Positions 2,142 to 44,383 of a DNA stretch of 49,174 nt are shown in pieces. The DNA is from Escherichia coli (GTDB taxonomy: Bacteria; Pseudomonadota; Gammaproteobacteria; Enterobacterales; Enterobacteriaceae). The first letter of the stretch is position 1. Every line of letters begins with the position of its first letter. The translations under genes were made by a program, and so were the position numbers. The notes under the pieces are model-generated. The model ran no database searches. It was not told the origin of the DNA and saw only the letters and a program-made list of their open reading frames with translations. The stretch lies in NCBI RefSeq assembly GCF_003334255.1, contig NZ_QOWU01000040.1. One strand, 5' to 3'.

Positions 2142-2756
2142 TTATTCTTCAATCGCTAACAATTGCAATGAACCACGGCTAAAATCCGCCAGCTTTGCGG
2201 AAAATTCAGCCACTTTCGCCGCCGGAAGCGCCACCCGCAGCAGAACGAATGCCTGATAATCACTGTTGATAATTTTGCCGTCACACTGCCCCAGCAACGC
2301 TTCAATGCCGGTTAACTGATGATATTCACATTGCAAAGTATATTCGGTTAATGGCGTCTTGCGTTGGGTCGTTAGCTGGCGCAGCGCCTGATTCACGCCG
2401 CCGCCATACGCTTTCACTAACCCACCGGTGCCAAGCAATATGCCGCCGTAGTAGCGCACTACCACAGCGGTAATTTCCCCGACGCCGCTGCCCATTAGCT
2501 GGGCGAGCATCGGTTTACCTGCCGTTCCCGCCGGCTCCCCGTCGTCAGAGAAACCCAGCTGTTGAGAATCATCCGGCGCACCCGCGACCCACGCCACGCA
2601 ATGGTGCCGGGCATCGGGGTGTTCTGCCCGCACCGATTCAACAAACGCTTTCGCCGCCTCAACGCCATCGGTATGCGCCAACATCGTTATGAAGCGGCTC
2701 TTTTTGATCTCTTCAACGACCGTGACCGGTGCCGCAGGAATTAACCAGCTTTCCAT
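2142..2756 (-). CDS. yigZ: IMPACT-family protein YigZ
   Basis: Track ORF 2142..2759 (205 aa, MMESW...). I recall the protein as 204 aa starting [10 protein letters not shown], so I chose the second ATG. The alternative start is 2759. Confidence 0.85.
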   Translation of the reverse strand: MESWLIPAAPVTVVEEIKKSRFITMLAHTDGVEAAKAFVESVRAEHPDARHHCVAWVAGAPDDSQQLGFSDDGEPAGTAGKPMLAQLMGSGVGEITAVVVRYYGGILLGTGGLVKAYGGGVNQALRQLTTQRKTPLTEYTLQCEYHQLTGIEALLGQCDGKIINSDYQAFVLLRVALPAAKVAEFSAKLADFSRGSLQLLAIEE

Positions 2757-4087
2757 CACGCCAGTTTCAGATCCCGGGTCATGTTTTCCACGTTGTTTTC
2801 GTGGATCACCACGTTGTCTTCGATACGAATGCCGCCGAACGGTTTCAGTGCTTCAATTTTCTGCCAGTTGAAGTGCTTGCTGAACTGCCCTTCACGCCAC
2901 GGTGCCAGTAGCGATTCGATGAAGTAGATACCCGGTTCGATGGTTAACACCATGCCCGGCTGGAGAATACGGGTGCAGCGCAGGTACGGATATTTTGCCG
3001 GTGCCGCGAGGTGCGTACCGCTATCATCCTGCATAAAACCAGCGACGTCATGCACCTGCAGGCCCAGCGGATGGCCGATACCATGCGGCATAAACGGCCC
3101 GGTAAGATCGTTTTCGACCATCGCTTCTTCACTCATATCGGTGATGATTTGATGTTTACGCAGCAGTTTGGCGATGCGCTGATGGAACTGGATGTGGTAA
3201 TCCACATAGCTGACGCCTGCTTTCATGGTGGCGATCAGCGCCAGTTGTTCATCATTAACGTCCTTCACCAGCTGCGCGTAGTCGTTGTCACTTTTTGCCG
3301 ACCAGGTACGGGTCAGGTCAGCCGCATAGCCGTTATATTCTGCCCCGGCATCCAGCAGGAAGCTGCGCATCTCTTCCGGTGCCTGATGGTCCAGTTTGGT
3401 GTAATGCAGTACCGCAGCGTGTTCGTTAAGCGCCACAATGTTGCTGTAAGGTACGTCGGTATCACGATGACCGGTCGCGGTCAGATAGGCAATGTTGATA
3501 TCGAACTCGCTCATGCCAGAACGGAACGCTTCTTCTGCCGCGCGGTGACCGTTGACCGCCATTTTCTGCGCTTCACGCATACAGGCCAGTTCGTACTCAG
3601 TTTTGAAGGAGCGATAGTAATGCAGGTAGTCGATAACCCCTTTCGGGTTGATGTTGCTGGCCTCAATACCCAGTTGCAGCGCACGTTCCGGCACCGGACC
3701 GATATAACCGATATTGCCGCGCGCAGCAGGCAGCAGGCTACCAATGCCATCGGCTTTCGGCAGCGCGATCACTTCCACATCTTCAGTCCAGAAAGAGGTC
3801 GGCAGCGGTTCGACGTTGTGCCAGTAATCAACCGGCAGATAGAACCACAGTTTCGGCTTGTTCACGCCATCCACCAGCAACCAGCAGTTTGGCACCTGAG
3901 TTACCGGCACCCACGCTTTGAATTGCGGGTTCACTTTAAACGGATAGGGATGATCGTCGAGAAAAACATTGAACAGCTCGCCGGAGTGAATAAGTAACGC
4001 ATCCAGCTTGAAGCGCGCCAGCGCATCGCGAGTCCGTTCTTGTAAGGTAGCTATATGATTTTTATAGAGCGAGGCCAGTGATTCCAT
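2756..4087 (-). CDS. pepQ: Xaa-Pro dipeptidase (prolidase)
   Basis: 443-aa ORF recognised as PepQ (M24 metallopeptidase). Confidence 0.95.
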
Positions 4088-4234
4088 TTTTTACCCTTCT
4101 GTTTTTTTGACCTTAAGTCTCCGCATCTTAGCACATCGTTCATCCAGAGCGTGATTTCTGCCGAGCGTGATCAGATCGGCATTTCTTTAATCTTTTGTTT
4201 GCATATTTTTAACACAAAATACACACTTCGACTC

Positions 4235-4251
4235 ATCTGGTACGACCAGAT
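4235..4251. promoter_or_regulatory. FadR operator in the fadBA promoter
   Basis: Palindrome ATCTGGTACGACCAGAT about 30 bp upstream of the fadB start codon; this matches the FadR operator sequence as I remember it. Confidence 0.7.
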
Positions 4252-4276
4252 CACCTTGCGGATTCAGGAGACTGAC

Positions 4277-6466
4277 ATGCTTTACAAAGGCGACACCCTG
4301 TACCTTGACTGGCTGGAAGATGGCATTGCCGAACTGGTATTTGATGCCCCAGGTTCAGTTAATAAACTCGACACTGCGACCGTCGCCAGCCTCGGCGAGG
4401 CCATCGGCGTGCTGGAACAGCAATCAGATCTAAAAGGGCTGCTGCTGCGTTCGAACAAAGCAGCCTTTATCGTCGGTGCTGATATCACCGAATTTTTGTC
4501 CCTGTTCCTCGTTCCTGAAGAACAGTTAAGTCAGTGGCTGCACTTTGCCAATAGCGTGTTTAATCGCCTGGAAGATCTGCCGGTGCCGACCATTGCTGCC
4601 GTCAATGGCTATGCGCTGGGCGGTGGCTGCGAATGCGTGCTGGCGACCGATTATCGTCTGGCGACGCCGGATCTGCGCATCGGTCTGCCGGAAACCAAAC
4701 TGGGCATCATGCCTGGCTTTGGCGGTTCTGTACGTATGCCACGTATGCTGGGCGCTGACAGTGCGCTGGAAATCATTGCCGCCGGTAAAGATGTCGGCGC
4801 GGATCAGGCGCTGAAAATCGGTCTGGTGGATGGCGTAGTCAAAGCAGAAAAACTGGTTGAAGGCGCAAAGGCGGTTTTACGCCAGGCCATTAACGGCGAC
4901 CTCGACTGGAAAGCAAAACGTCAGCCGAAGCTGGAACCACTAAAACTGAGCAAGATTGAAGCCACCATGAGCTTCACCATCGCTAAAGGGATGGTCGCAC
5001 AAACAGCGGGGAAACATTATCCGGCCCCCATCACCGCAGTAAAAACCATTGAAGCTGCGGCCCGTTTTGGTCGTGAAGAAGCCTTAAACCTGGAAAACAA
5101 AAGTTTTGTCCCGCTGGCGCATACCAACGAAGCCCGCGCACTGGTCGGCATTTTCCTTAACGATCAATATGTAAAAGGCAAAGCGAAGAAACTCACCAAA
5201 GACGTTGAAACCCCGAAACAGGCCGCGGTGCTGGGTGCAGGCATTATGGGCGGCGGCATCGCTTACCAGTCTGCGTGGAAAGGCGTGCCGGTTGTCATGA
5301 AAGATATCAACGACAAGTCGTTAACCCTCGGCATGACCGAAGCCGCGAAACTGCTGAACAAGCAGCTTGAGCGCGGCAAGATCGATGGTCTGAAACTGGC
5401 TGGCGTGATCTCCACAATCCACCCAACGCTCGACTACGCCGGATTTGACCGCGTGGATATTGTGGTAGAAGCGGTTGTTGAAAACCCGAAAGTGAAAAAA
5501 GCCGTACTGGCAGAAACCGAACAAAAAGTACGCCAGGATACCGTGCTGGCGTCTAACACTTCAACCATTCCTATCAGCGAACTGGCCAACGCGCTGGAAC
5601 GCCCGGAAAACTTCTGCGGGATGCACTTCTTTAACCCGGTCCACCGAATGCCGTTGGTAGAAATTATTCGCGGCGAGAAAAGCTCCGACGAAACCATCGC
5701 GAAAGTTGTCGCCTGGGCGAGCAAGATGGGCAAGACGCCGATTGTGGTTAACGACTGCCCCGGCTTCTTTGTTAACCGCGTGCTGTTCCCGTATTTCGCC
5801 GGTTTCAGCCAGCTGCTGCGCGACGGCGCGGATTTCCGCAAGATCGACAAAGTGATGGAAAAACAGTTTGGCTGGCCGATGGGCCCGGCATATCTGCTGG
5901 ACGTTGTGGGCATTGATACCGCGCATCACGCTCAGGCTGTCATGGCAGCAGGCTTCCCGCAGCGGATGCAGAAAGATTACCGCGATGCCATCGACGCGCT
6001 GTTTGATGCCAACCGCTTTGGTCAGAAGAACGGCCTCGGTTTCTGGCGTTATAAAGAAGACAGCAAAGGTAAGCCGAAGAAAGAAGAAGACGCCGCCGTT
6101 GAAGACCTGCTGGCAGAAGTGAGCCAGCCGAAGCGCGATTTCAGCGAAGAAGAGATTATCGCCCGCATGATGATCCCGATGGTCAACGAAGTGGTGCGCT
6201 GTCTGGAGGAAGGCATTATCGCCACTCCGGCGGAAGCGGATATGGCGCTGGTCTACGGCCTGGGCTTCCCTCCGTTCCACGGCGGCGCGTTCCGCTGGCT
6301 GGACACCCTCGGTAGCGCAAAATACCTCGATATGGCACAGCAATATCAGCACCTCGGCCCGCTGTATGAAGTGCCGGAAGGTCTGCGTAATAAAGCGCGT
6401 CATAACGAACCGTACTATCCTCCGGTTGAGCCAGCCCGTCCGGTTGGCGACCTGAAAACGGCTTAA
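4277..6466 (+). CDS. fadB: Fatty-acid oxidation complex alpha subunit (enoyl-CoA hydratase / 3-hydroxyacyl-CoA dehydrogenase)
   Basis: Track ORF 4151..6466. Start trimmed to the ATG at 4277 ([16 protein letters not shown]), which follows a CAGGAG Shine-Dalgarno and gives the 729 aa I recall for FadB. Confidence 0.95.
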
Positions 6467-7639
<1,173 letters not shown>

Positions 7640-7645
7640 CCACTT

Positions 7646-7829
<184 letters not shown>

Positions 7830-7890
7830 TGGTTTGCCAGATACGTCATAGATCTAAATGCCACTGAATAACAGTTTAGTTGCCGTTCTT

Positions 7891-13283: not shown

Positions 13284-15526
<2,243 letters not shown>

Positions 15527-18792: not shown

Positions 18793-18860
18793 CGTGATAC
18801 TCATCACCATGACGCAAATGCGTTGCATAAATTTACCCACCAAAAGTGATGCAAATCACA
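18793..18860. promoter_or_regulatory. Tandem CRP sites of the udp promoter (CytR/CRP-type module)
   Basis: cGTGAtactcaTCACc at 18793..18808 and aGTGAtgcaaaTCACA at 18845..18860, centres about 52 bp apart, upstream of udp on the minus strand. This is the classical spacing of CytR-regulated promoters. Confidence 0.55.
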
Positions 18861-18980
18861 TAAATCACCCTTCATTCTGCAGGACTGCATAAAAGATGAG
18901 CCGATTCAGGCAATGTGATTTGTTGCATGCTGACTATAGTTAACATTGCGCAACATTTTTATAAGGGTACGGAGAATACC

Positions 18981-43997: not shown

Positions 43998-44383
43998 GAC
44001 GTATCGCCTGATTTGCTACCCGTCATGACTGTGATTCCGCCAACATCAACGGTAACACGCGGCATTCGGGATATTTCGTATGTCAAAGGTAACCGTTACC
44101 ACTTTTCGCGCCTGGTTTTTTTAGTTTCACGACGAAAAAATGGTCTAAAACGTGATCAATTTAACACCTTGCTGATTGACCGTAAAGAAAGATGCGCTAC
44201 ATACAAGTGTAGCACCGTTTATTCTCTGTAAATTCCTTATTACAACGGCGTGAAACGCCTGTCAGGATCCACTGCCAGACCTCATTTTACGGTTTGCGCA
44301 GGCGTCTACGTTTCACCACAACACTGACATCACTCTGGCAAGGATGTTAGGATGGACCACGGATGATAATGACGGTAACAAGC

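Follow-up and report, generated by a model that had tools for sequence, protein, structure and literature searches.

The window analyzed here is a stretch of Escherichia coli DNA of 49,174 nucleotides that carries the divergent genes pepQ and fadB. Specifically, pepQ (Xaa-Pro dipeptidase) occupies 2756..4087 on the (−) strand as a 443-aa ORF (NCBIfam equivalog NF010133, 794 bits vs. a cut-off of 339), and fadB occupies 4277..6466 on the (+) strand (TIGR02437 equivalog, 1410 bits vs. a cut-off of 934); both assignments agree with the RefSeq annotation of identical DNA. The operon continues with its second gene, fadA (3-ketoacyl-CoA thiolase), at 6476..7639 on the (+) strand (TIGR02445 equivalog, 807 bits vs. 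a cut-off of 591, and RefSeq annotation). Between the pepQ start codon, which ends at 4087 on the (−) strand, and the fadB ATG at 4277..4279 lies an intergenic control region of 189 bp (4088..4276) with a G+C content of 41.6%, compared with 52.6% for the window. This gap is exactly the interval that an earlier note, made from the sequence, had described as the pepQ/fadB divergent region. A Shine-Dalgarno sequence of fadB, AGGAG, is found at 4266..4270 on the (+) strand within the conserved TCAGGAGAC.

The pepQ–fadB gap is identical to that of K-12 MG1655 over all 189 bp, while the whole window shares 99.96–99.99% identity with MG1655, mapping to approximately 3,986,000–4,035,250 on the reverse strand; the window is thus this very locus from a K-12-like strain. 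A query of 801 bp spanning the site described below matched all 5,426 of 5,426 complete E. coli genomes at at least 95% identity, with the annotation pepQ | fadB. The fadR gene is absent among the genes annotated in this 49-kb stretch, so the FadR regulator acts in trans. Directly 3′ of fadA, at 7639..7830, we observed a REP/BIME-like tandem repeat (GCCGGATGCGGCG...) with a period of 98, 1.9 copies, and 85% matches, and the window contains one additional repeat unit of ~98–99 bp downstream of fadA relative to MG1655.

Within the intergenic region, the sequence ATCTGGTACGACCAGAT reads on the (+) strand at 4235..4251, as an exact search also found, which corresponds to K-12 coordinates 4,031,013..4,030,997. 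A repeat finder returned two arms of 7 nt each, ATCTGGT (4235..4241) and ACCAGAT (4245..4251), that are 100% complementary and flank a 3-nt center, ACG, that is not self-complementary, leaving seven of the eight symmetric pairs intact. The 17-bp near-perfect palindrome upstream of fadB that the earlier note had reported is therefore exactly in place, with its 7 + 7 arms complementary, and the operator is a near-perfect rather than a perfect palindrome. Its distance to the fadB ATG is 25 nt. The TGG at 4238..4240 and the CCA at 4246..4248 form dyad recognition motifs that lie 5 bp apart, which is the spacing asked for by the structural work on FadR, where base-specific contacts are made through the TGG of each half-site with the motifs 5 bp apart (PMC3592433). 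Perfect inverted repeats of the 7-3-7 type number six in the 49-kb window against approximately three expected; the significance of the operator accordingly lies in its identity to the FadR site, its position, and its conservation, and not in its symmetry as such.

The identity with DNA that FadR is known to bind is exact at several lengths. Biosensor work gives the 17-mer verbatim under the name "fadO", an operator bound by FadR (PMC7372789), so that the earlier description of a known element proved right letter for letter. The operator 19-mer that was co-crystallized with FadR, CATCTGGTACGACCAGATC (PMC3592433), is an exact string match to 4234..4252, and the corresponding FadR–DNA crystal structure is PDB 1H9T, as named in PMC9329746. 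Similarly, the fadBA gel-shift (EMSA) probe ACTTCGACTCATCTGGTACGACCAGATCACCTTGCGG, which is bound by wild-type FadR and not by its W60G mutant (PMC4259882), is identical to 4225..4261. Deletion of fadR has been reported to raise the expression of a fadBA-lacZ fusion 5- to 10-fold (PMC3460868) or more than 3-fold (PMC4259882), and the FadR site of fadBA has been described as overlapping the start site and blocking RNA polymerase, with acyl-CoA of C14 or longer as the ligand (PMC9329746). Since the 17-mer equals the published operator, the core of the EMSA probe, and the core of the crystallized DNA, the proposal that FadR represses fadBA through this site is borne out.

Formal scoring against known FadR sites leads to the same assignment, with some limits. 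Compared with the published FadR consensus, aaCTGGTCnGACC(T/A)Gtt (PMC9329746), the operator matches at 13 of the 16 specified positions and departs from it at positions 2, 8, and 16. In a consensus scan of the window, it is the position with the fewest mismatches (three, vs. four for the next-best position), and the chance expectation of the 17-mer pattern with at most three mismatches is 0.05 per shuffled window. The site had previously been called a "perfect FadR operator"; the designation as a FadR operator stands, whereas "perfect" does not, given the three departures from the consensus and the asymmetric center.

We also scored the window with position weight matrices (PWMs) from which the fadB site was left out. 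With the first such matrix, built from six other FadR sites in a published table of gel-shift probes and primers, the operator was neither ranked first nor significant in the window scan; we consider this matrix inadequate because of its small size and the dominant weight of the near-identical fabA and fabB sites in it. A symmetrized matrix of 11 sites combined the six probe sites with those of fadE, fadI, fadH, fadM, and iclR, each of these five being chosen as the closest match to the consensus in the K-12 promoter of a documented FadR target. With this matrix, the operator scored 15.2 bits and ranked first among 98,316 window positions, a value that falls inside the range of the 11 training sites (6.8–20.4 bits), while the next-best position in the intergenic region scored ~4 bits. 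In dinucleotide-shuffled controls of the whole window, the operator score was reached in 7 of 100 shuffles (10 of 100 with a larger pseudocount), and with the unsymmetrized matrix in 39–44 of 100. A FadR matrix scan, which the earlier note had named as a check, thus places the site at the top of the window with 11 sites, but it is borderline at the scale of 49 kb and fails with six. The PWM scan supports the FadR assignment and alone would not prove function. The second-best match to the FadR matrix in the window, AGGTGGTCTGATCGCCT (13313..13329, (−) strand, 12.2 bits), falls within the 3′ end of ubiB; it is probably due to chance, because its score equals the level of the best matches in shuffled windows.

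The position of the operator relative to the fadBA transcript follows from published numbering. A putative FIS site in the fadBA promoter, TTGCATATTTTTAACACAA, was numbered −36 to −18 by Feng and Cronan (PMC3460868); it maps to 4199..4217, which sets +1 at 4235. For fadB, the Park et al. 2013 supplement (PMC3798270) gives an ArcA box, gtgttaaaaatatgcaaa, and a 43-nt region of four repeats at −50 to −9, together with a listed ChIP peak and 27.2-fold repression. By exact mapping of these sequences, the ArcA-P binding region with its four direct repeats spans 4184..4226 and the core ArcA box 4198..4215, both on the (−) strand, and +1 again falls at approximately 4235, independently of the FIS numbering. 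The comparison with mapped starts that had been suggested for this site therefore yields +1 at 4235, a value derived from two published site numberings, and the FadR operator consequently covers +1 to +17 of the fadBA transcript.

A candidate promoter fits this start. The putative −35 hexamer TTGCAT (4199..4204, (+) strand), with TTTGCA conserved, lies inside the putative FIS site, and the putative −10 hexamer CACACT (4222..4227, (+) strand) follows after a 17-bp spacer in a conserved block at a position that fits a start at 4235; the latter reads CACAAT in Serratia, Dickeya, and Brenneria. A generic sigma-70 consensus scan of 3950..4400 returned no promoter at threshold. Placed by conservation and published numbering, the fadBA promoter with TTGCAT and CACACT would be a weak sigma-70 promoter. 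On the opposite side of the gap, a candidate extended −10 element of pepQ, TGCTAAGAT, may be assigned to 4125..4133 on the (−) strand, where TAAGAT is located on the bottom strand. A comparison of 72 distinct Enterobacterales sequences among the matches listed shows the block that holds it, CGCATCTTAGCACA (4122..4135), to be conserved. This candidate lies ~100 bp from the FadR site, which suggests that pepQ is not under FadR control.

Next, we consider the conservation of the operator within and beyond E. coli. Of the 5,426 complete E. coli genomes, 5,415 carry the 30-mer at 4234..4263 with 100% identity. In approximately half of the E. coli genomes (2,806), the allele differs at two positions within the 37-nt probe region (4225..4261); in an O157:H7 example, these are CT>TG at 4232–4233, directly upstream of the operator, accompanied by G>A at 4197, outside the probe. 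The polymorphisms at 4197 and 4232..4233 thus hug the operator and do not enter its core. In strain SCU-125, the first operator position is changed from A to G (locus L133, position 120).

A search of 298 Gb of sequence for the exact 17-mer gave a cross-species set of more than 120 genome loci. In 83 of the 120 loci listed, the exact 17-mer lies 23–28 nt upstream of a fadB orthologue, a number that documents retention and is biased towards it because of the exact-match retrieval, so that the fraction of species with a lost or changed site is not derivable from it. These 83 loci belong to Escherichia, Salmonella, Klebsiella, Enterobacter, Serratia, Dickeya, Erwinia, Providencia, and other Enterobacterales, and pepQ is divergent in them wherever the locus extends far enough. 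Over their first 200 residues, the FadB orthologues of the 83 listed loci are 67–98.5% identical to the FadB of the window, and the intergenic DNA around the site agrees with the window at only ~60–80% of positions. The remaining 37 of the 120 listed loci come from scattered unrelated taxa, approximately the level expected by chance for a 17-mer in 298 Gb. The 17-mer also recurs in several genomes of Phascolarctobacterium/Acidaminococcaceae (loci L020, L051, L069, and L082; also L019 and L065) with neither fadB nor pepQ nearby, where it is probably a conserved coding segment of that lineage.

Among the 83 listed loci, 15 have unchanged arms and a central triplet that reads CGT instead of ACG towards fadB (L021, L029, L031, L042, L049, L057, L059, L060, L071, L078, L084, L098, L111, L115, and L125). 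They represent the genera Serratia, Dickeya, Brenneria, Providencia, Moellerella, and Symbiopectobacterium. A symmetric dimer that leaves the center unread would be expected to accept such a flip.

A second conserved element lies further upstream at 4163..4184 and follows the pattern (T/C)GTGATC-N6-NCA(A/T)3, which resembles a CRP half-site. Its center at 4173.5 corresponds to −61.5, and within it GTGATC (4167..4172) and GCA (4179..4181) are near-invariant. In a cross-genus alignment of the listed loci, the element reads TGTGATC in most genera, and in 80 of the 83 listed Enterobacterales loci GTGATC keeps an almost constant spacing to the operator start, mostly 66–68 nt. Read as a 22-bp CRP site against TGTGA-N6-TCACA, it has G5, G7, C18, and A19 conserved and C16 not. 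The position −61.5 is the classical location of class I CRP sites. The direct repeat GAGCGTGAT, 9 nt long and exact, occurs at 4147..4155 and 4163..4171, 16 bp apart, and only its second copy, which is part of the −61.5 element, is conserved beyond the Escherichia/Salmonella/Klebsiella group.

To score this element, we used a CRP PWM made from 23 published sites as given in a supplement (PMC5772556). The leave-one-out median of the 23 training sites was 15.4 bits. As positive controls we used udp and cyaA, both known CRP targets: the matrix recovered AAAAGTGATGCAAATCACATAA (18842..18863, 20.7 bits), ~125–145 bp upstream of udp, and AAACGTGATCAATTTAACACCT (44148..44169, 14.7 bits) in the hemC–cyaA divergent region. 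The −61.5 element itself scored a weak 2.2 bits in E. coli, and across the 80 listed loci the median was 5.2 bits with a maximum of 16.3 bits in Tatumella. The element reads GTGTGATCCGACCAGCA in the Klebsiella/Raoultella/Enterobacter/Kluyvera group, where it scores as a second FadR-like site (12–14.5 bits with the FadR matrix).

Expression of fadBA has been reported to be crp-dependent, with no CRP site identified and a possibly indirect effect (PMC3460868 and PMC9329746). Neither fadB nor pepQ is named in the CRP genomic SELEX paper, nor in the main text of the CRP ChIP-exo paper. Based on its sequence and spacing, we tentatively put the element forward as a direct cAMP-CRP site of fadBA, possibly a degenerate class I site of which one half is good; it is a candidate and not a finding, and we regard the proposal as doubtful. 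If true, a direct site would explain the crp-dependence of fadBA. The −61.5 element thereby offers a concrete candidate for a gap stated in the literature, namely, how CRP acts on fadBA.

Taken together, the 17-bp dyad at 4235..4251 is almost certainly the single operator through which a FadR dimer represses fadBA. Its sequence, identity to bound DNA, position, score, and conservation come from the present analysis, and binding, repression, ligand release, and the transcription start come from the K-12 literature. FadR, a member of the FadR subfamily of the GntR family whose gene lies elsewhere in the chromosome, sits on the operator as a dimer, with each winged-helix domain reading one of the two TGG/CCA motifs 5 bp apart. 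The operator begins at the transcription start, directly downstream of the putative weak sigma-70 promoter, and at +1 to +17 bound FadR occludes RNA polymerase. Long-chain acyl-CoA (C14 or longer) binds the C-terminal domain of FadR and separates the recognition helices, whereupon FadR leaves the DNA and fadBA is transcribed. ArcA-P at −50 to −9 adds anaerobic repression, and cAMP-CRP is required for full expression of fadBA.

Other explanations of the palindrome are far less probable. It might act mainly as RNA, with the very start of the fadBA mRNA folding into a 7-bp stem capped by a 3-nt loop; this hairpin would serve transcript stability or tune translation, and binding of protein would come second. 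A transcript starting at 4235 would indeed open with this hairpin, the minimum-free-energy fold of 4235..4290 includes it, and invariant arms around a free loop triplet (ACG or CGT among taxa) are a pattern that a stem-loop would tolerate as well. However, the fold is unexceptional (z = −1.79; 14 of 200 shuffles fold as well), Rfam covariance models gave no match at E-values up to 1 over 3900..4500 on both strands, and the invariance of the arms means that there is no covariation to support RNA pairing. Binding of FadR to the operator DNA and fadR-dependent repression are, on the other hand, published (PMC3460868, PMC4259882, and PMC3592433). We therefore consider a primary role in RNA very improbable and the hairpin at most an incidental by-product.

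Even less credible is that another regulator of the GntR/FadR subfamily, e.g., the pyruvate sensor PdhR (box AATTGGTnnnACCAATT), uses the site instead of or beside FadR. Of the 14 specified positions of the PdhR box, 10 recur in the 17-mer, the complete TGGT-N3-ACCA core among them; sites found by PdhR genomic SELEX have 8–10 of 14 matches, and PdhR effects on fad genes have been reported (PMC7660256). The SELEX targets in the same study, however, do not include pepQ or a site close to fadB (the text has 0 occurrences of "pepQ" and refers to fadB only in descriptive terms), whereas the operator is the best match to the FadR matrix in the window and its binding by FadR has been shown structurally (PMC3592433). 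A chance palindrome without function, for which the excess of only six over three 7-3-7 repeats and the 7–10% of shuffled windows reaching the PWM score might speak, is ruled out by the exact identity to an experimentally characterized operator, its invariance in 5,415 of 5,426 E. coli genomes beside polymorphic flanks, and its retention 23–28 nt from fadB in the 83 listed loci of many genera.

Regulation by FadR thus remains the reading of this site, and the operator is already known and fully described, with nothing new in it. It is the reference FadR operator, i.e., one that has been footprinted, crystallized with the protein, and reused as a part in fatty-acid/acyl-CoA biosensors. Compared with the K-12 fadB operator (OB or fadO), the window site is the same at 17 of 17 positions (19 of 19 with the flanking C's) and has the same context and position relative to fadB, leaving no difference between the two. 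The other E. coli FadR sites (fadL, fadD, fadE, fadI, fadH, fadM, iclR, fabA, and fabB) share its 17-bp architecture, with half-sites of the CTGGT/ACCAG type around a central base, and in the repressed genes of the regulon the site is placed at or close to the −10/+1 region, as in fadB. In contrast to them, the fadB site is the most symmetric of the regulon, with both arms reading ATCTGGT, and carries A in place of C at position 8 and T/A in place of A/T at positions 2 and 16. The number and the effect of the sites differ as well: fadBA has one FadR site whereas fadL and fadD have two, and the fabA and fabB sites activate whereas the fadB site represses. Beyond FadR, the TGGT-N3-ACCA core is common to the fadB site, the PdhR box, and the generic GntR operator, (N)yGT(N)xAC(N)y, but the outer positions of the fadB site fit FadR and not PdhR (10 of 14 matches to the PdhR box).
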